Source: an uncultured Gemmatimonadales bacterium (GTDB lineage Bacteria > Gemmatimonadota > Gemmatimonadetes > Palauibacterales > Palauibacteraceae). From it: a stretch of 64,000 nucleotides of DNA. Position 1 is the stretch's first letter; each line of letters opens with the position of its first letter. The translations under genes were made by a program, and so were the position numbers. Below are positions 41,181-59,682 of the stretch, in pieces. The stretch spans positions 448,001-512,000 of the forward strand of contig CAWANJ010000009.1 in assembly GCA_963783385.1 (NCBI GenBank), written 5' to 3'. The notes under the pieces were generated by a model, which did not search any database, was not told the origin of the DNA, and worked only from the letters and a program-made list of their open reading frames with translations.

Positions 41181-41183
41181 CTC

Positions 41184-41260
41184 TAAGTCACTGATTGTCA
41201 GTGACTTCCGGTTCACCGTCACCAGGCCGCCCAGCCTCACGGTGACAGTGGCGGTGACAA
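41184..41260. promoter_or_regulatory. att arm: IHF-like site/inverted repeat and putative integrase arm-type repeats
   Basis: AAGTCACTGA-N3-TCAGTGACTT (41185-41207); reverse complement of 41184-41196 fits WATCARnnnnTTR; CGGTGACAR at 41240 and 41252. Confidence 0.65.
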
Positions 41261-41284
41261 GCCGCGACCGGGAGAGGGGCTCGG

Positions 41285-42533
41285 ATGCTTGCCGAACGGC
41301 TCTACGAGATCGTCCAGGATACGCTCGCCTACGCCCGAAGATCTGACCTCGCCGACGCCCTATCGGCGCTCGCCAAGGCCACCAGGGATCGAGAGCAAGG
41401 TAGGGCCACCCCAGCAACACCGCCCCCGAATCAGCCTCCCCAGCCGAACCAGAGACGCCAAGAACCGACCGGCCCCAGTGCGGAGCAGCGCTTCCGATCG
41501 GCCCTCGACCACCTGAGCATCGCCCTCACCTCATCGGACGGGATCAATCGACTGGCCCCCTCCGATGCGAATATCCTAAAAGGCGATCGGCGGATGGGAG
41601 TTGACCGGAAAGCGACTCTGGGACCGAATCGAAAGGCGCTTGAACGTCCCGCTTTCGATGAGTCCTCGGCCTCCGACTTACTGGATCGCCTATCTGCCGG
41701 AGGTTCCAGAACAGTTCGTCGAAGCTCTGGAGGGTCTGGCGGAGAGCTTTCGAGTGCTGGGCCTGCATGGCATGGGTCTGCCGGGTGAAGCCCGCAGAGA
41801 TCGGCGTCATTTTCCCGGCCGGAGTTGAGGAGCGAAGCTTCAAGACAACCTCACGATCGGAGCTCGCTGACTTCAACTTAGCCCTCAGGGTGGTGCAGGA
41901 CGGCGGCTGGAAGACCACCCGGCGACATTCGAGTACGATCCCTGTCGAGTGGGAGCTGGTATCCTCGCGCTTCTGGGGAAGCTGGCGGTGGCTCGGGTGT
42001 TTTTGGCCTGCATCGAGGGGGGCGCTTGGCATTATCGATAAGGGGATGAGCATCGGTGCTCGCTATCGTGAACTCCGTGAGGCGGGCGCCCCGAAGAAAT
42101 CTCAGACGACCATATCAACCAGATGGTCGCCGTGGCTATGCGTCAGGAACGGGAGAGAGTTAAGGATGAGATCCTCGAGAGCGACGACGATCCGCGTCCT
42201 CGCGACCACGAAGTAGCGAACCACCTCGGCAGGGCGTTGGATTACTTCGTCCGCAAGATTAACGAAGGGGTGGTCTTTGAGGTCCGGGCTCTGCCACCGG
42301 CCGCCGGCGACGAGGGACTGGATGAGGAGTCCCGAGAATCCCTCGACCGGCTGTACAGTTTCGGCGGCGTAATGGCGGAGGACCATCCACGCCGTCACCT
42401 CCCGCATGAGGCCCTTCGGCTCGCTCGAGGCTATGAAGAAGACGAGCAAGAGGAAGGCGAGGCGGCCGGCGAGCGGGCCGATTACGGAGGACAGCCAAAT
42501 AGCGACGATGCCGCCGCCAAGAACCGGGACTAG
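41285..42533 (+). CDS. Cargo hypothetical protein (~400 aa), broken by several frameshifts
   Basis: Consecutive overlapping ORFs 41285-41788, 41601-41828, 41767-42216 and 42123-42533 read as one protein; lower GC than neighbours. Confidence 0.6.
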
Positions 42534-42534
42534 G

Positions 42535-43803
42535 CTAGGGGGCGATCAGGGCGGTGAGCCGCTCGCCGAGCTCCTTCCGGTAGTCCTCCACCCGGAACGC
42601 AACCTCCGGCCGCCGGTCGGGCCGCTGGGCCAGGTGCCCGTAACGCTCCTCGATCAGCCGCGTGGAGCTGTGCCCGAGCTCCCGGGCGACGGTGTAGAGG
42701 CTCACCGGCACCGGGACCTCCTGCGACTCCCCATCCGGACCCGGCCGCTTCACGACGTCGTAGGTCTGGATCCGCGCGGCCGTGTACGTGTGCCGGAGCA
42801 TGTGCCAGCGGATCCGCCCCTCGAGAAACCCCGCCCGCTTTCCGATCGTGTCGAGCTGCCGGCGGCACTCGCGGAGCATCTTCCCTGAGCGCGGGGAGGG
42901 AAAGAGGAGGCCGTCCTTCGGGCCGCTCCCCATGAACACGTAGGCCTGGAGGATCTCCCGGAGCTGGGGCCAGAGGGGGACCGTCCGCCTCGACCGCTTC
43001 GTCTTGAGCCCCCTGAATGCGTTCGGACGCACCCTGAGGAGCCCGGCGTCGAAGGAGAGGTCCTCCACCGTCAGGCCGAGGAGCTCGGACTTCCTGAGGC
43101 CCGTCAGAAGCGCCGTGGCGATCATCTCGTACATGGCCTCGTTCCCCCGGGCGGTGTCCGGCGGTGAGTAGAGCCGGGCCGACTCGAGGAGGAGGGCCGC
43201 CTCGGCCGGCTCCAGCCAGTCCTCTCGCTCCTTCCGCTCCGGCACCGGCTTGTCCAGGAGCGCCGCTACGGGGTTGTAGCCCGGAGGGACGACCTCCTCC
43301 TGCTGGGCGCGGCGGTAGAGGTTGGAGAGGCTGTTCAGGTGGTCCCGAACGGTCTTCTCGGAGAGCGTGCCGCCACGGCCGTTGTCGGTCTTCCGGAGGA
43401 CCGCGATCCACTGGCGCATGTCGGACGGCCGGATCGTCGTGAGCTCGCGGTCCTTCCCGAAGAACTCCACGGCCCGGGCGAGCTGATTCTCGACCGCCAC
43501 GAGCCACTTCGGGGACACGCCGGCCCGCTTCTTCGCCTTCATGTGCTCGGAGCCGAAGGCCTCGAGGCCCTCCACGCGCCGCACGCCCGTCACGACGCGC
43601 CGCTGGCGAAGCTCCTGGAGCTCCTGGAGGCGCTTGGCCGCCAGGGACTCGGCGATCGCCGGGTCCGTAGTGGCCCGCTTCGCCCCGTCGGGGATCAGCG
43701 CCTCCCGGCCGCCGCCCTCGGCGGCGTAGTCCCGAAAGTCCGCGTAGTAGCGGTCCTCGCCGCCGCGATTCCGCGTGTAGAGCCTGCCTCCGTTCTTTGC
43801 CAT
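42535..43803 (-). CDS. Tyrosine recombinase/integrase
   Basis: Catalytic set TGLRKSEL, KTKRSRR, WHMLRHT, ELGHSS, ERYGH; strong RBS. Confidence 0.95.
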   Translation of the reverse strand: MAKNGGRLYTRNRGGEDRYYADFRDYAAEGGGREALIPDGAKRATTDPAIAESLAAKRLQELQELRQRRVVTGVRRVEGLEAFGSEHMKAKKRAGVSPKWLVAVENQLARAVEFFGKDRELTTIRPSDMRQWIAVLRKTDNGRGGTLSEKTVRDHLNSLSNLYRRAQQEEVVPPGYNPVAALLDKPVPERKEREDWLEPAEAALLLESARLYSPPDTARGNEAMYEMIATALLTGLRKSELLGLTVEDLSFDAGLLRVRPNAFRGLKTKRSRRTVPLWPQLREILQAYVFMGSGPKDGLLFPSPRSGKMLRECRRQLDTIGKRAGFLEGRIRWHMLRHTYTAARIQTYDVVKRPGPDGESQEVPVPVSLYTVARELGHSSTRLIEERYGHLAQRPDRRPEVAFRVEDYRKELGERLTALIAP

Positions 43804-43812
43804 GTCTCCTCC

Positions 43813-44115
43813 TCAGCCGCTTCCGTCCCGCCGTGCCGGGTCGAGCTCTGTCCCGTGCAGGTTGGCTCGCTGCCACTCGGCCAGGAGCTCCTGCCATGCG
43901 TCCTCGACCCAAGTGCCGTCGGGGACCTCCATGACCTCCGCCGCGCCGCCGGTAGGGTCGGGCGTCACGACCAGCCGACAGGCCGGATGTCCGGTCGTGC
44001 TGTGAATCTCCTTCTGTGGGCCGCCCAAGCGCGCGAAGATCATGTAGGTCCCGCAGCACGGACACCGGACACGCACCAGGCGATCGTGAGGTCCGGCGGG
44101 GCCGGACCCTGTCAC
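43813..44115 (-). CDS. Small Cys-rich (zinc-ribbon-like) hypothetical protein
   Basis: GTG overlapping the upstream stop; VRCPCCGT...HPAC. Confidence 0.55.
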   Translation of the reverse strand: MTGSGPAGPHDRLVRVRCPCCGTYMIFARLGGPQKEIHSTTGHPACRLVVTPDPTGGAAEVMEVPDGTWVEDAWQELLAEWQRANLHGTELDPARRDGSG

Positions 44116-44344
44116 GTCGGGCCGCCCTCGAGCTCGGCCGCGAGGCCGCACAGCTGGCCCCCCCGGCGACGGGCCACACGCGCTGCGGCCGCCTGCCAGC
44201 CCTCCGGCGGAGAGCGGTGCCCGATGCGCTCGGATCGAGGCGCGCCTGGTAAAGAAGGGCGGCGCTCACGCCGAGCTCCTCGGCGATCTCATCCAGGCGG
44301 CATCCCGCCGCGAGGAGCCGATCGGTGACTTGCTTGAAGTCCAT
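44112..44344 (-). CDS. Small HTH repressor-like protein, one frameshift at ~44220
   Basis: MDFKQVTDRLLAAGCRLDEIAEELGVSAALLYQARLDP, continuing RSPPEGWQAAAARVARRRGGQLCGLAAELEG in the shifted frame. Confidence 0.7.
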
Positions 44345-44359
44345 GCGTAAAACTCGACC

Positions 44360-44404
44360 TTGACAGGAGCGGTGTCAATAGGCAATTTGACAGCGTGAGG
44401 TCAA
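44360..44404. promoter_or_regulatory. Divergent switch with two TTGAC...GTCAA palindromes
   Basis: TTGACA-N7-TGTCAA (44360-44378) and TTGAC-N8-GTCAA (44387-44404). Confidence 0.7.
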
Positions 44405-44451
44405 CGTAGCCCGGCCGCGGGGCCGGGTCCACCCCGAACGAGGAGCGCCAC

Positions 44452-44787
44452 ATGCCGCCGGCAACACTGGATCGACCCGAGACGAAGGCGCCCGACACCG
44501 TCGCCGATCGCACCTGCCTGGGGATCCCGATCCTCTCGGAGACGTTCAGGGAGACCTACTACGACGCCATCAAGGCGGACCCGGGGAGGGTCGGAAAGCT
44601 GGAGGCGATCGCCGATATGATGCAGGAGCTCCTCTGGAGCGAGTCGGAGGGACTGGAGTCCGGCCATCCGGCCATGCGTCCATTCGAGAACGCGATCGAC
44701 GCCACCAGCGAACTCAAGGACGCGCTCACCAGGGCTCGCGCGGCGCTCCTGGATCTCCAGGGGCCGGACGCGAACGCACAGAGCTAG
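44452..44787 (+). CDS. Hypothetical helical protein, first gene of the rightward arm
   Basis: GAGGAG RBS; 111 aa; good codon usage. Confidence 0.7.
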   Translation: MPPATLDRPETKAPDTVADRTCLGIPILSETFRETYYDAIKADPGRVGKLEAIADMMQELLWSESEGLESGHPAMRPFENAIDATSELKDALTRARAALLDLQGPDANAQS

Positions 44788-44916
44788 GGGAGGCCTCGGG
44801 CCGCAGGGTTCACGCATGGAGCCCTGCGGCCGGTCCAGGTGTCCAGCCCTGCTTCGCACCACCGGGAGAGCCTCGCAGCTCGGCACTGAGCTGGAATTGA
44901 ATTTCGCGCCAAGCTG

Positions 44917-45040
44917 TTGACAGGGGGCTACCGGTGGACTAGCCTTATAAGACGCGGCCGGAGGGCCGCCGGGGCACGGCCCCCGATACAGCAGCAAAAT
45001 CGCCGCGGGGCGGACCCATCGAGCGCTACCGCCCCTTTTT
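44917..45040 (+). promoter_or_regulatory. Promoter (TTGACA-17-TAGCCT), structured leader and terminator-like hairpin
   Basis: Hairpins 44954-44969 and 44970-44985; GGGGCGG...CCGCCCC-TTTTT at 45007-45040. Confidence 0.55.
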
Positions 45041-45058
45041 GCATCGCAGGAGGTTCGA

Positions 45059-45240
45059 ATGTCACGCCGCCGCGGCCAGCCGTTCTCCATGTGGCTGAGA
45101 GACGATGAGCGCGAGCGGCTAGAGCCGCGGCCCAGCGGGTCAGTGGCTCCGCCGGATCGCTCGCCCGCCGCGGCGCCCTGGGGCTCGCGGGTCAGCTTCT
45201 AGGGGACGCCCCCGCACCCAACTCGACGCCGCGCGCATGC
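45059..45240 (+). CDS. Probable ribbon-helix-helix regulator (frameshifted, end uncertain)
   Basis: AGGAGG RBS; MSRRRGQPFSMWLRDDERERLE... beta-alpha pattern. Confidence 0.4.
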
Positions 45241-45642
45241 GACGAGGTCGAGCGGTAGTGCCGGTGAGGCGGCGCTCGACTTCGGCAACTGGAGGACGGC
45301 CTCCCAGCAGCACCGAGGTGGCCAGCCATGTCTCGACGCAAGCCGCTGTACCGACCGCGACGCGGGCGCTTCCTAACGGCCGCCGAGAACTCGCATCTCG
45401 CGCACGGGATCATGGCCGTCCAATGGGTGGCGAGCGCGTGTTCGCGGCCGACCGCTGCTCGAGCCTGGTCGAACGCGGTCCGGGCATCCGGGAGGACGCG
45501 GGACTCGGACTGCGCCGGCGAACGTGAGAGGCACCGGGGCCGGTCGACGGGGCCGGTGGCGTGACGGCCGACCTACGGCGGTCGAAGCGCCCGCGGGGTG
45601 GTGGCCGCGCCCGGTCGCCCTACTCACGGACCTCTCGGTCCA

Positions 45643-46023: not shown

Positions 46024-47396
46024 ATGGCTAGCGCGGTCGCCGCGGTCCCGAACTCGGAGCTCGCGGAGCGGGCCGTCCTCGGCGCGTTGATCCTCGATCC
46101 GGAGCGCGCGGACGATCTTCTCGCCGAACTCCGGCCGGAGGACTTCCTCGATCCCGGGCGCCGGGCCGTGTTCGAGGCCTCAAGGTCGCTCTACCGGGAT
46201 GCGCGGACGATCTCGGCGGAGCTCCTCCACGAGCGACTCCTGGCCGACGGCGAACTCGAGCGCGCCGGGGGCGCGAGGGGGCTCGCTGGCCTCCTCGAGA
46301 CCGACGTCGCCGGAAAGCAGGCGCTCGAGCTCGCACGCGAGCTGAGGGGCCACCGGATCCGCCGCGAGCTGCTCCGGGCCGCTGGCGACGTCGCAGCCAT
46401 GGCCCGCCGCCTGGACGTGCCGGCCGGCGAGCTGGCGGGCCGCGCCGAGTCGCGGATCCTCGAAGCTGCCGGCGCCGACGTGCACCAGGACAATGGCCTC
46501 GCGATCGGGGCCGCGGCGCTCCAGGCGCTCGAGAGGATCGAGCGCGTCCGGGAGAAGGGCGGTGCGATGGGGCTTCCCACCGGCCTCGGGGCTCGACCGG
46601 CTCACGGGCGGGCTCCGGGCGGGCCAGCTCTGGATCGGCGGCGGGGACACGAGCTCGGGGAAGACCTCGCTCGCCGTCGGCATCGCCCGGCACCTCGCGC
46701 TCGCCGAGGCCCAGCGGGTCGTGTTCTACAGCTTCGAGATGGGCGGGACGGACATCGGGGAGCGCGTCCTCCTCCAGGAGGCCGGGATCGGACTCGCCCG
46801 GGCGAAGCGCCGGGACCTCGGGCAGGCCGACATCGAAAGCTCCACAGGGCGGCCGCGCGGCTGCAGCGCGCCCGCTCAAGATCGTTCCCGCCTCCGACCT
46901 GAGCGCCACGGAGCTTCGTGCCCGCGCCCGCCGCGAGGTGCGCCGGGGCGGCGCCCGGCTCCTCGTTGTCGACTACCTCCAGCTCGTCCCGGGAGGCGGC
47001 GGCGAGACCCGCGAGCAGGAGGTCTCGGGCGTCACGCGGGAGCTCGGCCGCATGGCGCGCGAGCTCGAGGTCCCCGTCCTCGCCCTGGCCCAGATCAACC
47101 GCTCGCACGCCTTCCGCTCGGGCGACCACCGGCCCCAGCTCTCCGATCTCCGCGAGTCGGGAGCGATCGAGCAGAACGCCGACGTCGTCCTGTTCGTCTA
47201 CCGGCCGGGCCGCTACCGGGACCCCACCGAGCCCGAATACCGGAAGGAGCGGGAGGAGGCGGAACTCATCGTCGCCAAGCAGCGCCAGGGACCGCTCGGG
47301 ACGGTGCGCTGCCGCTTCCGCGGTGAGCTCTACCGCTTCGAGGAGCTCCTGCCGGACGAGCAGGCTTCCTACAGCCGCGGAAGGGTTCGCACATGA
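46024..47396 (+). CDS. DnaB-like replicative helicase, frameshifts at ~46590 and ~46850-46880
   Basis: AERAVLGALI, GLPTG, GGDTSSGKTS, YSFEM, VVDYLQL, LAQINR, RPQLSDLRESGAIEQNAD, IVAKQRQGPLG. Confidence 0.9.
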
Positions 47397-47730: not shown

Positions 47731-47900
47731 TTGCAGACGTCTGCAACGCCAGGCATGCGGCCATGCGTCGCGGACGCATTCCCCGACCGACCATCCGAGC
47801 CGGGGCCGGCGGCGACGCCGGTGCGGGCGCGCGGCGTTTCACCTCCTCCGCCGCCCCCGGGGGCCGCATCCCCCGCCCGGTCTCCTCTTCGCTCATGCGG
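47731..47900 (+). ncRNA. Candidate structured RNA/regulatory region with GNRA hairpin and anti-SD loop
   Basis: 16-bp palindrome 47731-47746; hairpin 47763-47779; outer stem 47800-05/47855-60 enclosing a GCGA-tetraloop hairpin and a hairpin with loop TTTCACCTCCTC. Confidence 0.5.
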
Positions 47901-47910
47901 GAGCGACGCG

Positions 47911-48945
47911 GTGTCCGGACCGACTGATGCCTACGCCCGGCTCGCCGACGCCGCCGTCCGCGAGGGCCGCCTCGAGGAGCTCGACCAGCTTGTGCGGGCG
48001 ATCGACCCCGCCTTGGCCCGCCGACTCCAGTCAGCGCTCACCAACGGCCTCAAGGAGCGCAATGCCGAGGAAGCCCGCGGCGACGACGGCCCCCAGATCG
48101 TCCGCCTGGCCGAGATCCTCGCGCGCCCCGATCTCCTCGAGCCGCCGCGGACCGTGGTCCCCCGGCTCGCCTGGTCGGGCCGCGTCACGCTCCTGGCCGG
48201 CCGCGAGAAGGTCGGCAAGTCCACCCTCGCCGCCGGCGCCGAGGCGGCGGTCTCGGCGGGCGCCGGGCTCTTCGGGGCCTCGACGCCCTGCGGGCCGGTC
48301 CTTCTCCTCGCGCTCGAGGAGCACATGGGCGACGTGGCCCGCCGGCTCCAGGCCTTCCGCGCCGACCCCGAGCGCGTCTGGGTCCTCGACCGGATCGAGG
48401 AGCCGCTGGCCGACCTCGCCGGCGCCGTCCAACACGTCGGCCCGGCCCTGGTCGTGGTGGACACCCTCGCGGCCTTCACCGCGCCGCTCGGCCTCGAGCC
48501 GGGCAGCTCGACCGACTGGACCCCGGTCATGGCCGGGATCGCCCGGGTGGCCCGCGACACGGAGACGGCGATCGTGCTTCTCCACCACGCCTCGAAGGCG
48601 GACGGCTCCTACCGGGACTCCACCGCGATCGGCGCGGGGGTCGACGTGATCCTCGAAGCGAAGCGCGGCACCGAGGAGACGGTGCAGGTGAAGGCCCGCG
48701 GCCGGTTCCCCGTCGAGGACTTCACGGTCCGGCTGCTGGGGAGCCCGGCACGGCCCCGGCTCGCCCTGGCCGCCGGGGAGCTCGGCCTCGACGCCCGCGT
48801 GCTGTTCTACGTCGACCGGAACCCGGGGGCCTCGAAGCGGGCGGTCTGCGGGGGGGTCGAGGGCAGGGCGCAGGACATTCTCAACACCGTCGATCAGCTG
48901 CTGGGGCGAGGCCTCGTGGAGGACCGCGGCGACGGACGCGGCTGA
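47911..48945 (+). CDS. AAA_25 / RepA-like (RecA-fold) ATPase-helicase
   Basis: AGREKVGKST, LALEE, LVVVDT, LLHHASK, RDSTAI; possible C-terminal wHTH. Confidence 0.85.
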   Translation: MSGPTDAYARLADAAVREGRLEELDQLVRAIDPALARRLQSALTNGLKERNAEEARGDDGPQIVRLAEILARPDLLEPPRTVVPRLAWSGRVTLLAGREKVGKSTLAAGAEAAVSAGAGLFGASTPCGPVLLLALEEHMGDVARRLQAFRADPERVWVLDRIEEPLADLAGAVQHVGPALVVVDTLAAFTAPLGLEPGSSTDWTPVMAGIARVARDTETAIVLLHHASKADGSYRDSTAIGAGVDVILEAKRGTEETVQVKARGRFPVEDFTVRLLGSPARPRLALAAGELGLDARVLFYVDRNPGASKRAVCGGVEGRAQDILNTVDQLLGRGLVEDRGDGRG

Positions 48946-48974
48946 GCGCTGCACTCGACCGCTCAAAGCACAGG

Positions 48975-49089
48975 CGGAAACGGGGCGGAAGCACCCGGAA
49001 ACGGTTCCGGAAACGCTAGCACGGGCAGGGGAGGGGAGAGCGTTTCCCGAGGGGGGCACACCCCTGAAAGGGGTGCCCCCTCGGAAACG
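48975..49089. repeat. Iteron-like CGGAAACG repeats plus long hairpin; putative replication origin
   Basis: Copies at 48975, 48996, 49008 and 49082, inverted copy at 49041; hairpin 49041-49089. Confidence 0.65.
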
Positions 49090-49228
49090 CCCCCCGAGCC
49101 CGTGAGAGCGGGAAGCGACCGTCCGAGAGGCCCTGGAGAACTTCCCGTGAGCGGCCGGAGCAGGGGGGCGAGACCCCATCGACAGGCCGCAAAACGGGCC
49201 GCCGGATCGCTCCAGCCCGGTAGGTGCA

Positions 49229-49252
49229 CTGTCACCGCAGCTGTCACCGCAG
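49229..49252 (-). repeat. Tandem 12-bp repeat CTGTCACCGCAG x2 matching the att-arm motif
   Basis: Reverse complement contains CGGTGACAG with 12-bp period, as at both element ends. Confidence 0.75.
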
Positions 49253-49346
49253 GCCGTAAGTCGTTGTCGGGCATGGACCGAACGGCAGGCTGCACGCCCA
49301 ACGACCGGAGGCGGCCGGTAGGCGTAACTAGGCGTGAGGCAAGCAC

Positions 49347-49715
49347 ATGAGTCTTGAGGAGCGCCTAGCACGCATGATCGAGCCGCTCCCGGACGGGGCC
49401 AGCGTGCTGCTGCCGGTCGAGACCGTGCGCCGCTGGCTCGAGCTCGAAGGGCAGGGCGCGGGCTCCCGGCCGCTCTCGGATCTCACGATCGCGGACGTCG
49501 CCGAAGAGCTCGATCGCTCGCCCTCGACGGTGCGCGGATGGCTGATCGCCGGTGACATCCCGGAGGCCTACAAGCTCCAGGGCCGGGAGTGGCGCATCCC
49601 CCGCGGTGCGCTCCGGGCCTTCCTGGACGGCCAGGCGAACGGCGACGGCGGGGTGAGGCGGGGTACCGGCCGGCGATCGAGCGCGAAGCTCTCGGATTGG
49701 AGGAGGCAGGCGTGA
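49347..49715 (+). CDS. Excisionase/AlpA-like HTH protein
   Basis: LTIADVAEELDRSPSTVRGWLIAGDIPEAYKLQGREWRIPRGALRAFL. Confidence 0.85.
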   Translation: MSLEERLARMIEPLPDGASVLLPVETVRRWLELEGQGAGSRPLSDLTIADVAEELDRSPSTVRGWLIAGDIPEAYKLQGREWRIPRGALRAFLDGQANGDGGVRRGTGRRSSAKLSDWRRQA

Positions 49716-50134
49716 GCGACCACAAGCGGTGCAGGGCGATCACCGAAGGCGGCACGCGGTGCAAGATCCAGAACAGCCTCTCCGAGGACGGGCTGTGCCT
49801 CTGGCACGACCCCGAGCGCGCCGAGGAGGCGGCCCGTGCCCGCCGCCGCGGCGGGCGGAATGGCGGCCGCGTGCCGAAGATCCGGACGGCCGGCATGGAC
49901 GAGGTCCCCGATCCGCCCCAGAGCGTCGAGGACGTGGTGGCCTGGACGAGCTGGGCTACCTGGGCGGTCGCCACGGGCAAGATCGACAGCCGCACGGCCC
50001 ATGAGATCGGCTACCTCGCCCGGGCGCTCCACGCCGGACTCGAGAAGGTGGATCTCAGCGAGGAGGTCGAGGAGCTCCGGGCGATGATCGAACGCCTGCA
50101 GGCCGGCGGCTCCGCGTCGAGGGCGGCTCTGTGA
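49712..50134 (+). CDS. Probable terminase small subunit-like protein with N-terminal CCCH zinc finger
   Basis: RCRAITEGGTRC...GLCLWH; C-terminal coiled coil; coupled directly upstream of TerL. Confidence 0.6.
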   Translation: MSDHKRCRAITEGGTRCKIQNSLSEDGLCLWHDPERAEEAARARRRGGRNGGRVPKIRTAGMDEVPDPPQSVEDVVAWTSWATWAVATGKIDSRTAHEIGYLARALHAGLEKVDLSEEVEELRAMIERLQAGGSASRAAL

Positions 50135-51708
50135 CGCTCGCCACCGACCTCCGGCGGCTGCGGGAGGACGTCGGCGAGCTCCTCGCCCGGCACGATCGGG
50201 CGCAGGACATCTCCGAGTTCGAGGCCTACGCCGAGGACCCGATCGGCTTCGTCCGCGACGTGCTCGGCGACACCGACCCCGGCCCCTGGTGGCGGCAGGT
50301 GGAGATCGCCGAGGCTGTCCGGGATCACCCCCTGGTCGCGGTGCGCTCGAACAACTCGGCCGGCAAGGACTGGCTCGCGGCGCGTCTGGCGCTGTGGTGG
50401 GTCTACGCCCGCGGCGGGCTCGCCCTCGTCACCGGCCCCACTGAGCGTCAGGTCGTCGAGGTGGTCATGGGGCAGGTGGCCCGCGCCTTCCGCCGGGCGA
50501 GCTCGCTCCCCGGCGACCTGTACCGCTCGGCGCTCCGGGTCGGCGAGACGGAGGAGGCCGGGATCCTGGCCTTCACGTCGACCGAGGCCTCGAGGCTGAC
50601 GGGGTTCCATGCCGGGCGCGTGTTCTGTGTGCTCACCGAGGCGCAGGCGGTCGAGGATTTCGCCTGGGAGGGGCTCCTGGCCTGCGCGACGGGACCGGAG
50701 GACCGGCTCCTGGCGGTCGGCAACCCGGTGGCCCCCGACGGGCGGTTCTACCGGGCCTCCCGGGCCGGGACGTGGAAGGCGATCCGGGTCTCCGCGAAGG
50801 AGCACCCGAACGTCGTCGAGGGCCGGATGGTGATCCCCGGCGGCGTGTCCCGGGCCTTCGTGGAGCGGATCGCCTCGGAGTACGGGGCGTCGAGCGGCGT
50901 CTACAGGTCCCGCGTCCTCGGCGAGTTCCCCGACCAGGGAGAGGACGCGCTCTGCGCGCTCGAGTGGGTCGTCTCCGCGGCCGAGCGCTGGCAGGACGAG
51001 GAAGAGCACGAGGACCGCCGGCCCCGGGGCCTGCCGATCGTGGCGATCGACCCGGCGCGGTTCGGGCCGGACCAGACCGTCGCAGCCGTCATGCGCGGGA
51101 GCCGCGTCGTCCGGATCCTCGCCTGGCGGGGCGCCTCGACCATGGAGTCCGTCGGCCGGGTCGCGGAGCTGCTCCGCGAGGAGGGCATCCGGCCGAAGCC
51201 CAAGGCCCAGCGCTCGGCGCCCGGCGGCTTCGACGCCTACGGCCGGCCCACGAAGTTCGCGCTGCCCGCGGCGCCCCCGGAAGAGACCGGCCGGATCGTG
51301 GTGGACGAGATCGGCGTCGGGGGCGGCATCGTGGACCGGCTCCGGGAGCGGGGCTTCGAGGTCACGAGCTTCAACGGCGGCGGCCGGCCGCGGGGAAAGG
51401 GCCGGGAGCGGCACCTGAACCTTCGGGCGCAGGGCTACTGGACGCTCCGCCGCGCGCTCGAGCGGGGTGAGATCTCGCTCCCCCCGGACGACGACCTCCG
51501 CCAGGAGCTCGTGTCCATGCGCTGGGGGCCGACCTCCTCCGGCCAGATCCAGATCGAAGCGAAGACCGAACTCAGGGCGCGGCTCGGGCGGAGCCCGGAC
51601 AAGGCCGACGCCGTCTCCATGGCCGTGCTCGAGTGGGCGCGGCTCCGGGCCAGGGCCGCGCGGGACCCGATCGCGCCGAGCCTATCGTTCACTGACACCA
51701 GCATGTGA
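50131..51708 (+). CDS. Terminase large subunit
   Basis: YAEDPIGFVRDVLG, RSNNSAGKD, GNP, RVLGEFP; nuclease motifs IDPARFGPD, VDEIGVGGG, RLGRSPDKADA. Confidence 0.9.
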   Translation: MTLATDLRRLREDVGELLARHDRAQDISEFEAYAEDPIGFVRDVLGDTDPGPWWRQVEIAEAVRDHPLVAVRSNNSAGKDWLAARLALWWVYARGGLALVTGPTERQVVEVVMGQVARAFRRASSLPGDLYRSALRVGETEEAGILAFTSTEASRLTGFHAGRVFCVLTEAQAVEDFAWEGLLACATGPEDRLLAVGNPVAPDGRFYRASRAGTWKAIRVSAKEHPNVVEGRMVIPGGVSRAFVERIASEYGASSGVYRSRVLGEFPDQGEDALCALEWVVSAAERWQDEEEHEDRRPRGLPIVAIDPARFGPDQTVAAVMRGSRVVRILAWRGASTMESVGRVAELLREEGIRPKPKAQRSAPGGFDAYGRPTKFALPAAPPEETGRIVVDEIGVGGGIVDRLRERGFEVTSFNGGGRPRGKGRERHLNLRAQGYWTLRRALERGEISLPPDDDLRQELVSMRWGPTSSGQIQIEAKTELRARLGRSPDKADAVSMAVLEWARLRARAARDPIAPSLSFTDTSM

Positions 51709-53094: not shown

Positions 53095-53109
53095 ACCGAG
53101 GGGGCGGAG

Positions 53110-53291
53110 ATGGGGGACCCAAGGGCCGGCCGGGGGGAGTGTGAGGCCTGCGGCGAGGAGCTCGGACGCCGCGGCGGCCGCGTCTGCGAGCTCTGCAGGG
53201 TCAAGGGCCGCTCTGCGAGGAGTGCTGGGTCGAGGACGGCCACCAGGCCCACGCCGACCAGGCGCTCGACCTGTCGGGAGACCATCAATGA
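53110..53291 (+). CDS. Small multi-CxxC zinc-finger protein (one frameshift)
   Basis: CEAC, CELC, then CEEC...H..H in the shifted frame; stop overlaps ATG 53288. Confidence 0.55.
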
Positions 53292-54082
53292 GCACGCGGC
53301 GGCTGCTCTTCCTCGACCTCGAGACGACGGGGCACGGGGGAGCCGGATCCGGACCGCGACTGGATCGTGGAGTTCGCGTTCCAGCGCCTTGACCCGGAGC
53401 TCGGGCGGGCTCGAGCGGTGGGCGGAGCGGGTGAACCCCGGCGAGCCGATCCCGCGGACGGACCGAGGTGCACGGGATCTCTGACGCTGACGTCGCCGGC
53501 GCGCCTCCCTTCGCGGCCTTCGCGCCTGGGGTCCAGGGCCTGGTCGAGGGCTCGCTCCTCGTGGGCTACGGGAGCCGGCGTTACGACGTCCCGATCCTCG
53601 ACCGGGAGCTCCGCGCTGCGGACGAAGCCGGGCTCGAGCGGGACGCTTCGGGCGCGTTCATCGTCCACCCGGAGATCGACCTCTACCTCGCGTGGCAGCT
53701 CCACGAGCCGCGCGACCTGGCGACGGCGGCCCGGCGCTTCGCCGGCCGGGAGCTGGGGAACGACGCACATGGCGCCGAAGCGGACGCGGGCGTGCTCCGC
53801 GAGGTGCTCCGCGGCATGACCGAGAGCTTCGGTCTCCCCGGAGCGGACCGGCCCTCGGAGCTGGCCGCGGCTTGCCTCCAGCCCGGCGCCATGGACCGCG
53901 CCGGCTGCTTCCGCCGGCGCGAGGACGGTGTGGTCGTGTTCGACTTCTCGAAGAACCGCGGCAGGCCCGTCCGGGAGGAGCCGGGCATGCTCGAATGGAT
54001 GCTCAGGAACGACTTCCCGGCCGAGACCCGGCTCCTCGCGGATCGGCTTCTACGGGACGCTACTGGCGGCGGGGAGGACTGA
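53288..54082 (+). CDS. DEDDh 3'-5' exonuclease (DnaQ/ExoX-like), frameshifted near the 5' end
   Basis: FLDLETTG, VNPGEPIP, VHGISD, YDVPIL, AHGAEAD. Confidence 0.88.
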
Positions 54083-54085
54083 GCC

Positions 54086-54616
54086 ATGGCTGCGGACGAG
54101 GGCGGCGTGCGGTACGTGGACCTCTCGAGGCCCTGGCTCGGCCGCTTCTCCGTCATGGTGCTCGAGCCGCTGGTCGAGGCGGCCGCGCGCATCGTCCGCG
54201 ACAAGATCATCGAGGTCATGGAGGCGTCCACCCCCTCGGGCAAGCGCTACCCATCCCGTCCACCATCGCGCCCCGCAAGCGCTACAACCCGGAGACGGGC
54301 CAGTGGGAGGAGCTCCCCGGGCAAGTTCTACACGGCCTCCGCGCCGGACGAGCCCCCCGCGATCCGCACCGGCGGCTACCGGGACGCCTGGCTGGCCTCG
54401 GGCGCCTTCGAGGCGCGAGACGGTCATGGCGTGATGGCCGTCGTCTACAACTCGATCTACGTGGGGAAGGGCCGCGTCCCGCTCTGGGACATCCTCCAGC
54501 GGGGGCGGAAGGACGGCACGCTCCAGCCCCGGCCACACATCGACAAGGCGCTCGAGCTCGCGCGGCCCGAGATCGAGGCCCTGATCCGCGGCTTCTCCGG
54601 GCGCGGGGGCCTGTGA
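54086..54616 (+). CDS. HK97 gp10-like phage tail-completion/morphogenesis protein
   Basis: TASAPDEPPAIRTGGYRD...LQPRPHIDKALE resembles this family. Confidence 0.65.
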   Translation: MAADEGGVRYVDLSRPWLGRFSVMVLEPLVEAAARIVRDKIIEVMEASTPSGKRYPSRPPSRPASATTRRRASGRSSPGKFYTASAPDEPPAIRTGGYRDAWLASGAFEARDGHGVMAVVYNSIYVGKGRVPLWDILQRGRKDGTLQPRPHIDKALELARPEIEALIRGFSGRGGL

Positions 54617-54710
54617 GCCGCCGGAACGGCCGGCCGGCTGAGGCGGCCGTCACGGCCCGCGAGGCCCGAGGGGGCACAAAGACCGGCCGGAGCCCGCCCC
54701 GGACGACTCA

Positions 54711-54951: not shown

Positions 54952-54983
54952 GCGGGCGGAGCCGGAGCAGATAGGAGGCAGGG

Positions 54984-57900
54984 ATGCCGAACGAAAGCGG
55001 TGCACCGCCGGTCGGCGAAGCGGCGGTCGAGTTCTCGCCGAGCACGGGGCAACTCGAGGCGGACATCAACACGAAGGTTCGCCAGGCGTCGGAGGCTGGC
55101 GGGAAGAGGGCGGGCAAGGCTTTCAGTCGGGGCTTCCGGGACACCTCGAAGCCACCGGGCAGCAGGCGGCCGACGCGATCGTGGCTGACGTCAAGCGGCG
55201 CTTCGACGAGCGCTGGCCGAGGTCCGCCACGCGTTCGCCGCCGGCCTCATCAACCGCCAGGAGTTCGAGAAGGCGGGCCGCACGGCCGCCGAGGACTTCA
55301 ACAAGGCGCTCCTGAACTCCATCCGCCGCCTCGAGGAGCGGGACAGATCACGCCGGCTGTCTTTCGGCAGCTGTCCTCTCAGATCAAGCTCGAGGGCGTC
55401 CGGGCCGGGGGACAAACGGGAGCGGGATCCAGCAGGGCCTCGGCGGCCTCACCAAGTGGCTCCGGACGGGCTTCTATGCCGGCACGGCGGGCGCGCTCCT
55501 CTACGTGGCCAGCCGCATCAAGAGCTTCTTCGCCGGCGTGGCGCGCGACGTCGAGAACACGCTGAACCTCGGCGGCCTCCAGGCCCGCCGCCAGTCCCTC
55601 GAGAGCCTCGCCGGCGCGCAGGGCCTCGACCCCGCCCGGCTCCTGGGGAGCTCCGGAAGGGGGCGCGCGGCACGCGTCCGACTTCGAGCTCATGGACCGC
55701 GCCAACAACGCCCTCCAGGCCGGCCTCAAGGGCTCGGCGGACCAGTGGGGCGAGATGGCGACGGCGGCCCGCCGGCTCGGTCAGTCGGTCGGAATCGACG
55801 CCGCGACGGCGTTCGAGCGCATGACGAACGCCATCGTCCATAACCGGCCGATCATCGCCTCGACGCTCGGCCTCGTGGTGAACTGGAAGCAGGCCTACGA
55901 CGATGCGGCCGCCGCCCAGGGGCGGACGGCCAACAGCCTGAGCGCCACCGAGAAGCAGCAGATCCGGCTCTACTCGACGCTCGCGGTGGCCCGGAAGCGG
56001 GTACAGGACCTCGGCGCGGACCAGCTGAACGCCGCCCAGCGCGTGGAGCAGCTCCGGAGCGCTTGGGACAATGCCAAGAACGCTATCGCGCAGGCCATCG
56101 CCACCAACCCGGGCGTCGTATCGTTCCTCGACTCCATCGCCCGGGGCGCCGAGAACGCGTCTGCGCCAATGGAGGTCCTGGTGACGAAGATTCAGGCCGC
56201 CGTGGACACCGCGCTCCAGCTCGGCAAGGGGCTCTTCCAGGGCGGCATCGCCGGCTTCCTCGCGGCCTCGGCGAGCGGTCCAGGCTACCGCGAGAACCTC
56301 CAGCGCCGTCAGCAGCAGATGGCCGTGGAGAACATCGCTACGCGAGTGACACGAACGCCCTCCTCAAGCAGCGCAACGAGCTGGAGCAGGAGGCCGTGAG
56401 CTGGCAGCGCTTCCGGGTCGACGGCGAGGTGAAGGAGGAGGACGCGATCCGGAAGGTGAAGGATCTCCACGAGCAGATCCTCGCCATCAACCAGCGCATC
56501 GCGCAGCTCCGCGCTCAGGGGGACGTCCCCGGCGGCGATCCCACCAAGATCAACCTCGCCGCCCAGGCCGCCACGGCCATGAACGACGCGCTCAAGGAGA
56601 CGGCCGGGCTCCTCGGTCAGATCGAGGGCGAGGCGGCCACCAGTACACCGGGCAGGGCCTCATCGCGCGCTTCTTCCAGCGCGCCTCCGGCCCCTCCCCG
56701 GTCGGCCCCGGCGTGTCCGGGTTCTCCCAGGGCGCCGCCGGACTCCAGGCGGCCGAGGACCTGCGCGCGAAGCTGACCGACCTTCACCACTTCATGGACA
56801 TGCTCTCGAAGGCCGAGGGCACGGCCGGCGAGAAGTCGCTGGCCCTGAACGAGCACCTGAAGGAGCTCGGCCTCACCTGGGACCAGTTCCCCGACACGCT
56901 GAAGCTCCTCGTGAACGGTCTGATCGGCGCGGGGAACGCCGCCCTCATGCTTGGCCAGGGCTCGGATCAGGCCGAACGGAGCGCCTCGAAGCTGATGGAC
57001 CCTGCGGGCATCGAACGGGCGGCCCGCGGCATCCTCTCGCTCGCCGATCGATGGGCGTCCTCGACCACAAGACGCGCCGCGCGCTGCAGGGCATGGTCGA
57101 CATCGCGGGAGGCATCAGGACCTTGCTCCAGGGGGTAAGCTCGGAAATCTCCCCTCGGTGGCCGGCGGCCATTCCAGGGCGTTTCCGGCATCATCGGCAC
57201 GGTCAGCGGCCTGTTCGGCAAGAGTCGAGAAGGACAAGGAGCGCGACCGGCTCCTCGCCGAGAACAATCAGCGGCTCACCGACCTCAGGAACGAGCTCGG
57301 CCGCCAGCTCCAGTTCCTGACCGGGATCTCCGGCGACCAGTTCTCCGCGCTCCTCAAGGTGACTCAGCAGGCGGCGGCCGACCCGAACAGCTTCCTCTCG
57401 GGCTACCACTGGGCCGACCTCAAGAAACAGCTGGAGGCGGCCGGCCTCGGCCTCTCCGACCTCCACGACGCCGCCCAGAAGCTCGGGATCACCTGGGACG
57501 ACGGCCACCTGGCCGAGAGCTTCACGGCGCTCGCCAGGGCGCTCCGCGAGCTCGACCTCAAGAAGGCGCTCGGCACCTTTCAGGGGCAGATGGGGCTCCT
57601 CCAGCACGAGTTCTCGATCTTCAACGTGACCGACCCCGTGCAGAAGCTGGAGAAGTTCCGCCAGCTCCTGCTCAGCTTCACCAGCCTGCCGGGCGGCCTC
57701 CAGCAGCAGCTCTCCGGCCTCGACCTCACCACGGCGGCCGGCCAGACCCAGCTGCAGCAGATCCTCGAGCAGCTGTTCTCGGCCTTCGCCTCCGGCCGTA
57801 TCTCCATCGCGCAGCTCCAGGGCGCCCAGGGCGGCCTGTCGGCCTCCGACTTCCAGGACCTCCTCGACCAGATGGCCCAGCTCCTCCAGCACGCGCAGGG

Positions 57901-58250
57901 CGCCTCGGGGAATGTCGGCGGCCTGCAGGTGTTCAGCGGGATCAGCGAGCTCCAGGCGAACCGCCTCCTCTCGGGCGACGATACCAAGATCGCGCTCCTC
58001 TCGAAGCTCTGAGATCAACGCGGCCGGCTTCCGCGGGCTCGGCGTCGACATCCCGAGCCCGGGCGACCTCGCGCCCCTGGCCCGGCCTGGGGGCGCGGCC
58101 TCCACGACCGTCACCTTCCAGCCCGGCTCGATCGAGATCGGCCCGATCGACCTCGCCGGCGTCTCCGACCCGAAGGCGGCCGGCCAGGCGCTCGGCGACG
58201 CCTTCGTCCGGGAGATCGACCGGCGGCTTACGCGAAGCGGGTCTCCGCCT
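54984..58250 (+). CDS. Phage tail tape-measure protein (~1,090 codons), split by many frameshifts; 3' end approximate
   Basis: AGGAGG RBS; N-terminus VGEAAVEFSPSTGQLEADI; long Ala/Gly/Leu/Gln helical runs (ORFs 55692-56399, 56713-57138, 57158-58012); TMP-like tail TTVTFQPGSIEI...DPKAAGQALGDAFVREIDRRL. Confidence 0.8.
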
Positions 58251-58683
58251 CGCGCGTCCAGGGGAGGGTCTCTGAGCGGGCTCGTGGTGGACGGGGAGGG
58301 ACTGCCATATGTCTAGTAGGCGGCCTGGACCGAGGCGCGTGGGCGCTCCTCGCCTCGGATACGATCCGGACTAGCGCCGACGGCACCCGTCAGGCGATCC
58401 TCGTCTCCTTTTCGGGCGGCGCGCTCACGCCCTGGAGCGTCCGGGCCTACGGCTCGGCCTCGGCCACCAATGGCGTGACCTACGTCACCTTCGGCTCGCC
58501 GTCGGTCACGGCCATCACCTCCTCGACGGCGAAGGTGCTCCTCCGGACCGCCGAGAGGGCGTAGGGCAGGCGGGCCAAACGGCCAGCCGCTCAGGTGGGC
58601 CATACCGCAGGGTAGGGGTAGGGCTCAACGGAGGGTCAACGGGCAGGCGGAGAGCCCATGGAGACCCCTCCTGGCCCTTCGGA

Positions 58684-59058
58684 CTACCAGCCGTCTGAGC
58701 CGACCATCCAGCCCTGACCTGTAAGCGAGTCGAGGAGCACCTGTCCCGTCTTCCTGGGCCTCCCAGCGCGGCCGGGCAGGTTGTACTTCCAGAATGCGAC
58801 GCCCGCGTCCACCTCGACCGAGTCCGGAGGTCCGAGATGGGCGAGAAGTTGGCATGCGCTCCAGTCACTCTCCGGCGCATAGTGCTGGCCCTTCGGCAGG
58901 TCCCTGTGCAGCCGGCCGTAGGCCTCCAGGACCGCGTTGTAACTGCAGCCCCACCGCGCGGCGACCTCCTGGGTGATGAGCCTCGGTCGCTGGGCGCAGC
59001 TCGCGGACAGCACCACCACCACCGCGAACAGCGCGGGTCGCAGAGCCTTGGTCGTCAT
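58684..59058 (-). CDS. Small lipoprotein (cargo)
   Basis: GGAGG RBS; MTTKALRPALFAVVVVLSASC lipobox. Confidence 0.75.
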   Translation of the reverse strand: MTTKALRPALFAVVVVLSASCAQRPRLITQEVAARWGCSYNAVLEAYGRLHRDLPKGQHYAPESDWSACQLLAHLGPPDSVEVDAGVAFWKYNLPGRAGRPRKTGQVLLDSLTGQGWMVGSDGW

Positions 59059-59116
59059 GTGCAGCCTCCCGTCGAGTCCATGCGGCGCGCTGACTCCCGC
59101 GGTGCCCGGAGCGGTT

Positions 59117-59383
59117 TCAATGCCCAGCCGCCCCCATTGCTCCGAGGAACAGGCTTCCGAAGGCGAGCCAGACAAGGAACCAGAAGATCGCGAAGAGGAT
59201 GCCGGTGGCGAGCGTGCCGAGGAGCACGCCGCCGGCAATTCTGGCGGCGGACGGTCCTGTTGCCAGGCGCAGTGCCTCGCGCCCCTCGCGGGAGTCGCTC
59301 GGGTTCGGAGCGCCGCAGCTCGGACAGTAGGGTGCGGAGCTGGCGATGTTGACCTGGCATGTGTGGCAGGCAACGAGAGGCAC
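59117..59383 (-). CDS. Zinc-ribbon membrane protein (cargo)
   Basis: GGAGG RBS; LVACHTC...YCPSCG followed by a long hydrophobic segment. Confidence 0.75.
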   Translation of the reverse strand: MPLVACHTCQVNIASSAPYCPSCGAPNPSDSREGREALRLATGPSAARIAGGVLLGTLATGILFAIFWFLVWLAFGSLFLGAMGAAGH

Positions 59384-59522
59384 GCGGACCTCCAGGTGAG
59401 GGTTCGGTCGGGGGCGCGCAGGCCTCGAATATCTCCCGGTGCGCCCGGCGCCGGCAACGCCGACCCCGCGAGCGCCCGCCTTGCAGGACAGACCTGGCCG
59501 CCCCCAGACTCCTCGGCGCAAG

Positions 59523-59552
59523 CGGTGCCAGTAGCGGTGACAAACGGTGCCG
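59523..59552 (+). repeat. Putative arm-type repeats next to attR
   Basis: CGGTGCCAG (59523), CGGTGACAA (59535), CGGTGCCG (59545). Confidence 0.65.
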
Positions 59553-59638
59553 ATTCTGGCCGACGCGGACCAACGAAGAGAAACCGAAACGCCGCGTGAA
59601 ATGTGGCTCCTGAGCGTTGACTGACGACCGGAACTAGC

Positions 59639-59682
59639 TTGTGGCCCTGGAGGCCGCGGGTTCGAATCCCGTCGCTCACCCT
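59639..59682 (+). repeat. attR core (duplicated 3' half of tRNA-His)
   Basis: 44-bp identity to 41137-41180. Confidence 0.95.

Follow-up and report, generated by a model that had tools for sequence, protein, structure and literature searches.

What is the 18.5 kb element that sits at a tRNA-His gene of an uncultured Gemmatimonadales bacterium, and could it travel in the particles of other phages? The element occupies positions 41181-59682 of the stretch of DNA analysed here, called the window (64,000 nucleotides, positions 448,001 to 512,000 of contig CAWANJ010000009.1, assembly GCA_963783385.1). An initial annotation, made from the sequence alone, had proposed a phage satellite with its own large terminase (TerL) and its own tape-measure protein (TMP). 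This proposal is supported in part: the element is discrete, recently inserted and without recognisable head genes, and it belongs to a family of small elements; no helper phage was identified. We lean, with modest confidence, towards an integrative, helper-dependent phage satellite that is a member of a 9-18 kb tRNA-integrating lineage with a private terminase as its hallmark. This reading is preferred because the element is a discrete mobile unit with a sibling copy, because its TerL is real and conserved, and because its architecture is recurrent and its core is shared with other elements. It is further preferred because no head genes were found, the TerL forms a separate lineage, the element's lineage is intact, and there is a precedent for a TMP in the satellites termed EPIPs.

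Are the ends of the element genuine? Two direct repeats, the attachment (att) sites at 41134-41180 and 59636-59682, are identical at 46 of 47 positions, the last 44 of them exactly, with a spacing of 18,502 bp. In G403, a genome of the same genus, window positions 40300-41180 align with C41:52687-53567 (94%) and positions 59683-60168 with C41:53568-54053 (91%), the second match directly abutting the first; the site is empty. Because the flanks abut, the repeats mark a true insertion boundary and not a chance repeat, and the proposal of an 18.5 kb element bounded at tRNA-His by exact 44-bp repeats and complete at both ends is borne out. Judging from the empty site in this congener, the insertion is recent. 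Both flanks also lie near each other on one contig of a second congener (G402), and in a third (G401) the comparison of left and right adjacency did not find the right flank. No TerL homologue is present in G401 or G403.

A sibling of the element, 98-99% identical, is found in an independent assembly on a contig of 18,588 bp. The contig holds counterparts of window positions 46024 (probably 44452) to 59058, or 13.0-14.6 kb; the remaining parts of the element come to about 3.9 kb, which gives a total of about 18.5 kb. The sibling appears to have been assembled as a unit with essentially no host flank. An element-sized contig is what would be expected of an excised or circular form, or of a unit that is polymorphic in the population.

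Central to the proposal is the terminase. The TerL gene is intact, and its product matches phrog_2 at 3.9e-26; a profile of the TerL family detects solved large terminases in the PDB (nuclease domains) at 4e-15 and 2e-9, and Pfam gives no match. An own large terminase, as first claimed, is thus well founded. An alignment of 30 homologues has 62 invariant columns, which include a GKD motif and acidic residues. The protein appears to keep both an N-terminal ASCE ATPase and a C-terminal RNase-H-like nuclease, the assignment of residues to motifs being our own reading. Directly upstream is a small open reading frame (ORF), here termed F2, that had been labelled as resembling a small terminase (TerS). 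It encodes a Cys/His motif followed by a C-terminal coiled coil; its profile matches the MCM10 zinc finger at 2.4e-4, a match to DUF5763 falls below the cut-off at 7.8e-4, and a protein atlas gives a further lead. The label should give way to that of a zinc-finger and coiled-coil protein without TerS homology, which may still be considered a candidate small terminase partner.

Is the element one of a kind? TerL has hundreds of relatives that are 46-58% identical, mostly in Gemmatimonadota-type metagenomes. Among 401 genomes sampled from the phylum, 21 show a TerL match at E <= 1e-30, the window's own genome and the unpublished G057 included. With G057 left out, 17 other TerL loci were checked for tRNAs and flanking repeats. 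A clear tRNA-att pair surrounds TerL in seven of these, at seven different tRNA loci and with sizes of 8.8-15.9 kb: L012 (11.4 kb, tRNA-Cys), L081, which is the same as L082 (10.2 kb, tRNA-Pro), L083 (11.0 kb, tRNA-Arg, with a 45/45 repeat), L002 (15.9 kb, tRNA-Val), G156 (8.8 kb, tRNA-Arg), G294 (12.7 kb, tRNA-Val) and G301 (12.2 kb, tRNA-Lys). Two loci are ambiguous, with short repeats 13.8 kb (G038) and 10.6 kb (G067) apart, and at eight (L014, L015, L080, G368, G316, G075, G055 and G025) there is no att pair; the contig ends 1.3-7 kb from TerL in L014, G075, G055 and G316. A deletion remnant would have been indicated if the closest homologues lay in full prophages of 40-60 kb; they recur instead in att-bounded elements of 8.8-15.9 kb.

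An all-against-all comparison reveals a mosaic family in which TerL alone is universal. Its companions are integrases of two families, an AAA_25 helicase, an HTH_17 protein and F2, the last directly upstream of TerL in six elements. The window integrase is 44% identical to that of L083 and 40% identical to that of L014; AAA_25 homologues are present in L014 and L203, and HTH_17 homologues in L014 and L083. The window ORFs carry DnaB and AAA_25 and, by Pfam, no primase domain; relatives have PriCT_2 together with AAA_25, or primase genes. Downstream of the window TerL, the same comparison found nothing common to any relative, and the TMP gene and its neighbour once labelled gp10-like are therefore not family traits. 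Related att-bounded TerL elements without recognisable head genes thus occur at seven of 17 loci, and they do not share the TMP and gp10-like genes.

In a quick maximum-likelihood tree of 33 TerL rows, seven of which were IMG/VR contigs, a clade of 13 rows with an SH-aLRT support of 99 unites the window with six other att-bounded elements (L012, L002, L081, L083, G294 and G156), with G038, whose repeats are ambiguous, and with five partial loci. It includes none of the seven IMG/VR contigs. The G301 TerL is placed apart, together with two further loci from Gemmatimonadota, and the best of 279 relatives that a profile scan recovered from IMG/VR is only 34% identical. The element TerLs seem to constitute a separate lineage without IMG/VR phage contigs.

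Where, then, are the genes for a virion? Pfam and PHROG scans of 40 ORF pieces of the window produced no capsid, portal, tail-tube or lysis match, and the absence of recognisable genes of these kinds, which the initial annotation had stressed, is upheld to the extent that the models can see such genes, as the Pfam capsid and portal models failed a control given below. No portal-length ORF lies between TerL and TMP, again as proposed, the longest there having 226 aa. When the frames are resolved, the longest unassigned ORF of the whole element is this same length (a coiled coil), and the largest unassigned stretch is 1,236 nt. The relatives present a similar picture. When 72 ORFs with a length of 90 aa or more from nine loci (TerL- and integrase-family ORFs, the window and L002 left out) were pooled for a PHROG scan, 74 families were matched, and the 25 that are listed are primase, helicase, SSB, repressor, methyltransferase or unnamed families. 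Of the ten largest ORFs of the relatives, two are primase/helicase and eight are without match; scans of single proteins identified primase/helicase, replication initiator, methyltransferase, RusA, SSB and integrases. A further comparison took 12 viral loci that carry related TerLs and set their 264 ORFs of 150 aa or more against 12 small elements; matches were few, limited to 13 TerL ORFs, four replication proteins and five marginal cases (E 5e-4 to 8e-3). The 508-aa ORF that follows TerL in phage locus L225, a single distant query, had no match in the window's own genome or in the PDB. L015 was considered as a capsid-bearing relative and dropped, as its 379-aa ORF is an integrase.

Of particular interest is the TMP gene, which is broken into several frames. 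One fragment (55566-56396) has a weak match to a PHROG tape-measure family, at 2.1e-6. With 55677-56396 as query, HMMER recovered 3,415 relatives at E <= 0.001; proteins of 1,093-1,427 aa, matched at about residues 230-430, rank first among them. Five relatives of 1,097-1,312 aa, aligned to the window by tblastn, run collinearly across differing frames. In P0128, for example, residues 51-94 correspond to 55201-55332 (f1), 215-405 to 55677-56255 (f0), 746-995 to 57230-58000 (f2) and 1042-1094 to 58122-58265 (f0). Six of eight relatives scanned match PHROG tape-measure families (1.7e-6 to 6.6e-18). From the collinear relatives and these matches it follows that 54984-58316 constitutes a single gene of the TMP family, with about 1,100 codons, and the TMP first noticed is indeed present. 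A tblastn search with two TMP fragments against 50,697 phage records gave no match, and a word-indexed search among longer proteins with window positions 57236-58009 found none. Preceding the TMP gene is a 176-aa ORF whose label, HK97 gp10-like, derives from the protein atlas, where the nearest clusters are viral and named 'virion morphogenesis', with PF04883 in 15% of one and PF05069 in 10% of another. There is no Pfam or PHROG match, even for the intact sibling protein, and the label is best treated as a lead. The exonuclease further upstream also matches RNase_T at 1.3e-4, just under the cut-off.

How does the element compare with satellites already described? Statements on published classes, above all on what they lack, hold for the portions of the cited sources that were available. 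In those phage-inducible chromosomal islands that form capsids (cfPICIs), terL is a distinguishing core gene (PMC10085698). They resemble the element in an integrative layout with integrase, regulator, replication genes and an own terL, and differ in that their terL is accompanied by capsid, head-tail adaptor and connector genes, so that only tails come from the helper (PMC10085698). In the present family no capsid, portal, protease or adaptor gene was found, and its members, of 8.8-18.5 kb, consist mostly of replication and cargo genes. In the window, terL is present and a major capsid, portal or protease gene is not seen among the 40 ORF pieces (by Pfam models that failed the control); as for a head-tail adaptor or connector, there is only the atlas lead of the gp10-like ORF, from PF04883 in 15% of one cluster. 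A complete tailed prophage would have portal, capsid, tail and lysis modules between its att sites, and the 18.5 kb do not contain them. Phage P4 is recognised by an alpha primase-helicase and by the sid, psu and delta genes for capsid size and regulation. The general PHROG scan of the window ORFs, which used no P4-specific models, gave no matches of this type.

With the classical PICIs (chromosomal islands inducible by phages) and SaPIs, the element shares size, integrase, an AlpA-type regulator (HTH_17) and a replication module, as well as packaging gene(s) that end a rightward operon and accessory genes at the ends. It differs from them in its large terminase with a zinc-finger protein unlike known TerS, and in its TMP-family gene. 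The median size of classical PICIs is 9.5 kb (PMC10085698). By the features used for PICIs in that source, an integrase lies at one end (PF00589 3e-15) and no TerS homologue was found; as to the regulation and primase-replicase modules the picture is mixed, HTH_17 preceding the packaging genes and the two helicases coming with no primase domain in the window. Closer with regard to the TMP are the EPIPs of Mycolicibacterium, described in a preprint, which carry a TMP with head-tail joining and scaffold-type genes and are without tail and lysis genes (PMC12822802); according to the same preprint, no other satellites are known to have a TMP except for a proposed TMP-like protein in PLE11. This bears out the earlier remark on TMP-bearing satellites. 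The likeness is a TMP in an element without tail and lysis genes. EPIPs differ in having a serine integrase and a TerS, with no TerL listed, and in being known from isolated particles with a known helper (PMC12822802), whereas the element has a tyrosine integrase, a TerL and no TerS homologue that was found, and is known here from genes alone.

Environmental satellites offer further parallels. VEIMEs have no capsid genes and some have TerS, and in their authors' view the large terminase should come from the helper (PMC9618062); in PICI-like tycheposons there is terS or a major capsid protein (MCP) gene (10.1101/2020.12.28.424599). Like the element, both are small, environmental and tRNA-associated, encode a tyrosine integrase, primase/helicase and AlpA, are without a major capsid gene and are presumed to hijack capsids. 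They differ in that TerS (VEIMEs) or terS/MCP (tycheposons) takes the place of TerL, and their supplementary tables might contain TerL-bearing members. In satellites of Streptomyces, TerS and TerL come together with portal and capsid genes (PMC10690885). A scaffold from a cryoconite virome, ML_43_3791, was described in 2015 as a 15.8 kb circular 'putative satellite phage' with terminase, tail, prim-pol and integrase genes (PMC4490671). It too is small, has a terminase and a tail gene and no head genes, and comes from a virus-size fraction; it is known by a table entry in which the terminase subunit is unspecified, and can be likened to the element by description only. In the literature consulted, supplementary tables of which might hold such elements, we found no satellite family that is characterised by TerL and has no capsid genes, nor any such family described in Gemmatimonadota.

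What might the life cycle look like? The tyrosine integrase, probably together with HTH_17, would excise the 18.5 kb unit at the 47-nt att repeat, and DnaB and the AAA_25 helicase would replicate it. F2 would recognise element DNA and recruit TerL, which would dock on the procapsid portal of a co-infecting or induced phage and package the element. An own TerL would confer private packaging specificity and compete with the helper's motor, while heads, tail tubes and lysis would be supplied by the helper. In the window member only, the TMP-family gene and the possible gp10-like gene could alter tail assembly or tail length. The initial annotation had seen the supply of tail length as part of the design; as relatives do not share the TMP, it can be a feature of this member at most, and a speculative one. 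In its broadest form the proposal is that Gemmatimonadota satellites hijack at the level of the packaging motor, with a private terminase (zinc-finger subunit and TerL), a foreign portal and no capsid genes, and that the window member also brings a tape measure, so that it would determine what is packaged as well as the length of the helper's tail. We offer this tentatively, as a proposal slightly more apt to fail than to hold. Such a strategy fits none of the described satellite classes.

Several observations weigh against the satellite reading. One is that no helper was identified. The element TerL is the only phrog_2 match in its own genome, which is 92% complete, and a helper would therefore have to come from outside or be unrecognisable. 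F2 has no match to a TerS family in Pfam or PHROGs, its profile matching the MCM10 zinc finger only. Short-read evidence came from two sediment runs, as low-depth contigs of 90-99% identical relatives with 6-7% of the words, and gave no spanning piece, attP/attB junction, circular form, coverage excess or virion evidence, the depth of the runs being too low to weigh. The candidate joints in these contigs, whose sides of 21-36 letters agree at 90%, cannot be trusted. Then there is the search for head genes. As a control, five viral records whose TerLs are related, three with a completeness of 90% or more, were scanned: PF05065 matched none and PF04860 one (below the cut-off). These models are thus blind to this phage group, and negatives from the Pfam capsid and portal models carry little weight; in the window's own genome PF05065, PF04860, PF10145 and PF05133 had no matches, a result that is discounted since the first two failed the control. 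The relatives hold unannotated ORFs of 276-1,072 aa that might hide divergent structural proteins, large ones being those of L204 (1,072 aa), L205 (445 and 329 aa), L203 (383 aa) and L083 (347 aa). L015, a small TerL-primase-integrase element, has a 227-aa ORF (L015:10599-11279) that matches head-maturation protease/capsid-fusion PHROGs in its N-terminal (protease) part at 2e-18, the only head-related gene seen in any family member. Decay is also in evidence, as L002 has an in-frame TAG in TerL and a truncated integrase. In the window's own copy, frame breaks (discussed below) are concentrated in non-core genes, which would also fit a decay of accessory genes here, and both assemblies lose the TMP frame near 57.0 kb. 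Finally, a TerL has to fit a portal, and no known satellite class, as far as the available portion of PMC10085698 goes, uses an own TerL without an own portal and capsid.

Could TerL serve some end other than packaging the element? The elements might be integrative islands of defence or interference, or elements moved by some other route, that are not borne in capsids and retain a terminase-like ATPase-nuclease with its zinc-finger partner, for instance to cut or block DNA packaging by invading phages. Interference with the packaging of helpers is known from satellites and islands (PMC10085698; 10.1101/2024.04.22.590561). Such a role would accord with the lack of any capsid or portal gene or helper among the findings, with an accessory content so variable that TerL alone is universal, and with the absence of close members of the TerL clade from IMG/VR. 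It sits less well with the conservation of both the ATPase and the nuclease part of TerL across the family, with the position of TerL after a small DNA-binding ORF, which mirrors terminase operons, and with a layout of integrase, replication genes and AlpA-type regulator that matches PICI-type satellites (PMC10085698). This member has virion-related genes besides, the TMP and the gp10-like lead. Interference and self-packaging are not mutually exclusive, and islands of this kind are an unlikely, if serious, substitute for a satellite.

Are we dealing instead with what deletion has left of a once complete temperate phage, now in decay and stripped of its genes for head, tail and lysis? An orphan TMP without tail genes might suggest so, L002 shows that islands of this sort can decay, and the genes of the window copy are conspicuously broken. 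By exact-word mapping against the sibling there are at least 14 frame breaks in this assembly: three in DnaB, one in the exonuclease, two in the 176-aa ORF and eight in TMP, where further frame changes occur near 57.0-57.15 and 58.0 kb. The frame plot has about a dozen switches within 53-58 kb, and the late-region bin ranks in the top four of 713 genome bins by frame transitions. Genome-wide, deletion-type transitions are in modest excess (810 vs 683), and two host ORFs with a split appearance are intact when compared with relatives. The breaks are therefore concentrated in the element.

The sibling speaks against decay, as it reads through all 14 mapped breaks and is otherwise 98-99% identical. 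Its DnaB (P0281, 458 aa) is intact, its TMP ORF (P0283) has 693 aa, and its exonuclease (P0290, 217 aa) is identical at 203 of 204 positions. Its P0122 equals the window's 176-aa ORF except for three substitutions and the stretch 54250-54321, over which it reads what the window encodes in another frame, a compensating pair of indels having garbled the window. All eight mapped TMP breaks (55154-56632) go from f to f-1. Short contigs of relatives from the sediment runs carry +1 at 54249, -1 at 54315 and +1 at 56631, the last of which fuses two fragments into a frame of 431 codons, and over the broken stretches their ratio of gaps to mismatches is about 1:2 to 1:3. A homopolymer run of four or more is present at four of 13 breaks, against a background of 0.17. 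Since the sibling is intact at all 14 positions, the lineage is intact; single-base losses in one direction and a compensating pair indicate consensus error and are unlike neutral decay. Errors in the consensus of this assembly are the most likely source of the breaks in DnaB, the exonuclease, the gp10-like ORF and TMP. There are, in addition, seven similar small elements at seven tRNA loci with intact integrase and TerL (L002, with its damaged TerL and integrase, being the exception), and the empty site of the congener, hence the recent insertion. A defective prophage is accordingly improbable.

An autonomous, very small temperate virus, with structural proteins among divergent unannotated ORFs (genes A-C, the small ORFs and the cargo), is the least probable of all and hardly credible, for while several ORFs are without family and the Pfam capsid and portal models missed related complete phages too, so that sequence searches are insensitive here, the longest unassigned ORF, of 226 aa, encodes a coiled coil and falls short of portal size (after TerL, a related phage has an ORF of 508 aa), no ORF from phage structural regions matches any small element, and relatives of 8.8 kb cannot hold a tailed-virion module.

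The satellite reading is thus retained, and the map of the element may be filled in (Table 1). The window has 72% G+C, and reading frames were chosen by G+C at third codon positions (GC3). The order given initially for the integrase, DnaB, AAA helicase, Xis-like HTH, TerL, coiled-coil ORF, exonuclease and TMP agrees with the Pfam and PHROG matches. Two further labels find no confirmation: the 'repressor' (43813-44151) has no Pfam or PHROG match, and for the 'origin' there are only the inverted repeats at 49002-49087 and the 12-nt tandem at 49229-49252.

Table 1. Features of the element and its insertion site (window positions; E-values follow the family matched)
Feature	Position	Strand	Evidence or remark
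tRNA-His (GTG), integration target	41105-41179	+	ARAGORN; Rfam RF00005, 67.7 bits
attL, 47-nt repeat copy over 3' part of tRNA-His	41134-41180		46/47 match to attR
Low-GC (62-66%) cargo	41181-42534	-	composition, frame plot
Cargo ORF, 169 aa	41544-42053	-	no PHROG match
Cargo ORF, 115 aa	42102-42449	-	no PHROG match
Tyrosine integrase, 422 aa, intact	42535-43803	-	PF00589 3e-15; phrog_1 2.9e-45
112-aa ORF adjoining integrase	43813-44151	-	no Pfam or PHROG match
111-aa ORF, opens rightward arm	44452-44787	+	coding GC3; no Pfam or PHROG match; exact sequence on second contig
DnaB-type replicative helicase, three frame breaks (about 46588, 46837, 46872)	46024-47396	+	Pfam DnaB and DnaB_C over three frames
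AAA_25 ATPase (RepA/primase-helicase-type), 404 aa, intact	47731-48945	+	PF13481 1.2e-22; phrog_906 1e-15
Intergenic region	48946-49346		nested inverted repeats 49002-49087; 12-nt tandem duplication 49229-49252
HTH_17 (AlpA/Xis-type) DNA-binding protein, 122 aa	49347-49715	+	PF12728 3.2e-13; phrog_66 1.1e-7
F2, zinc-finger and coiled-coil small protein, end overlaps TerL start	49589-50134	+	directly upstream of TerL in six elements
TerL, large terminase, 525 aa, intact	50131-51708	+	phrog_2 3.9e-26, residues 24-506
Gene A, coiled-coil protein, 226 aa	51716-52396	+	sub-threshold coiled-coil Pfam matches only; exact sequence on second contig
Gene B, 127 aa	52416-52799	+	translation; no Pfam or PHROG match
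Gene C, 102 aa	52786-53094	+	sibling P0286, 100/102 identical
Cys-rich N-terminal ORF, then DEDD/DnaQ-type exonuclease; 5' part frame-broken (about 53455)	53110-54082	+	phrog_192 8e-15
Virion-morphogenesis/HK97-gp10-like candidate, 176 aa (lead only)	54086-54616	+	protein-atlas lead
TMP-family gene, about 1,100 codons, frame-broken	54984-58316	+	phrog_1535 2.1e-6 on one fragment
Reverse-strand cargo	58313-59058	-	frame plot
Predicted lipoprotein, 124 aa	58687-59058	-	signal-peptide-like N-terminus and Cys; sibling P0288, 123/124 identical
attR, second 47-nt repeat copy	59636-59682		right flank begins at 59683 in the empty site of G403

The intergenic region 48946-49346 may be a candidate origin of replication (ori) or packaging (pac) site. 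A comparable position, between the primase-helicase gene and the F2-TerL pair, is taken in L012 by two near-palindromic 28-nt repeats that are 52 nt apart (L012:8842-8921), likewise a candidate ori or pac site. The HTH_17 gene is placed before the packaging genes and not beside the integrase, and the integrase-proximal ORFs match nothing in Pfam or PHROGs. A plus-strand ORF opposite the left cargo (41285-41785) has no Pfam or PHROG match. Genes A, B and C were considered as a single frameshifted portal gene, which was rejected, as the junctions are proper stops and starts (a 19-nt gap and a 14-nt overlap) and gene C is called separately in the sibling.

Other observations concern the relatives and the surroundings of the element. 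L002 carries ordinary cargo (L002:879-16831: a histidine kinase, a sigma-54 response regulator, a methyltransferase, NmrA and PD40 propellers), with a second, intact integrase just past the tRNA, and looks like a decaying or cargo-converted family member. In L081/L082 and L002 it is the 5' part of the tRNA (Pro and Val), and not the 3' part, that the att repeat overlaps, with the integrase beside the intact tRNA, a less common arrangement for tRNA-targeting integrases. L080 has GC-rich repeats of 26-76 nt in five to six copies between genes downstream of TerL (L080:5132-11961), REP-like or terminator-like in appearance. The congener G402 has one TerL match, a 164-residue C-terminal piece (C27:24991-25852) that is 47% identical and lies near several tRNA-like matches; it is possibly the edge of another family element, or a remnant.

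Just right of the element, a 164-nt direct repeat (60005-60168 and 61621-61784, 99%) encloses 1.6 kb of lower-GC DNA, and the homology of G403 to the right flank ends exactly at 60168. An ORF of 426 aa within the repeat pair (60221-61501) has matches of about 35% identity, mostly unannotated, on 234 plasmid records; these span many phyla, archaea included, a behaviour like that of insertion sequences, and the ORF has no relative in the PDB. The region 60005-61784 looks like a second, separate insertion. Elsewhere, three 5-kb bins of G000 (C9:590000, C9:540000 and C1:60000) show 13-15 same-strand frame transitions, compared with 12 in the element's late region, and could be other mobile regions or poorly polished stretches of assembly.

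What would these elements mean for the biology of the phylum? There is first a lesson in method: frame-broken genes in a long-read metagenome-assembled genome resembled decay, and an independent sibling copy showed the lineage to be intact. The elements make up a so far undescribed family of small Gemmatimonadota elements, which are probably carried in particles that other phages make. Satellites known to date either come with an entire head module or redirect packaging, by means of a small terminase or a decoy. A satellite with TerL only, if true, would raise the question of how a foreign motor recognises the helper's portal and would amount to a new mode of helper exploitation or interference. 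The family also provides a signature that can be searched for, a unit of 9-18 kb bounded by tRNA and att that combines integrase and replication genes with a TerL preceded by a zinc-finger ORF, and this could find satellites in soil and sediment phyla for which none have been described.

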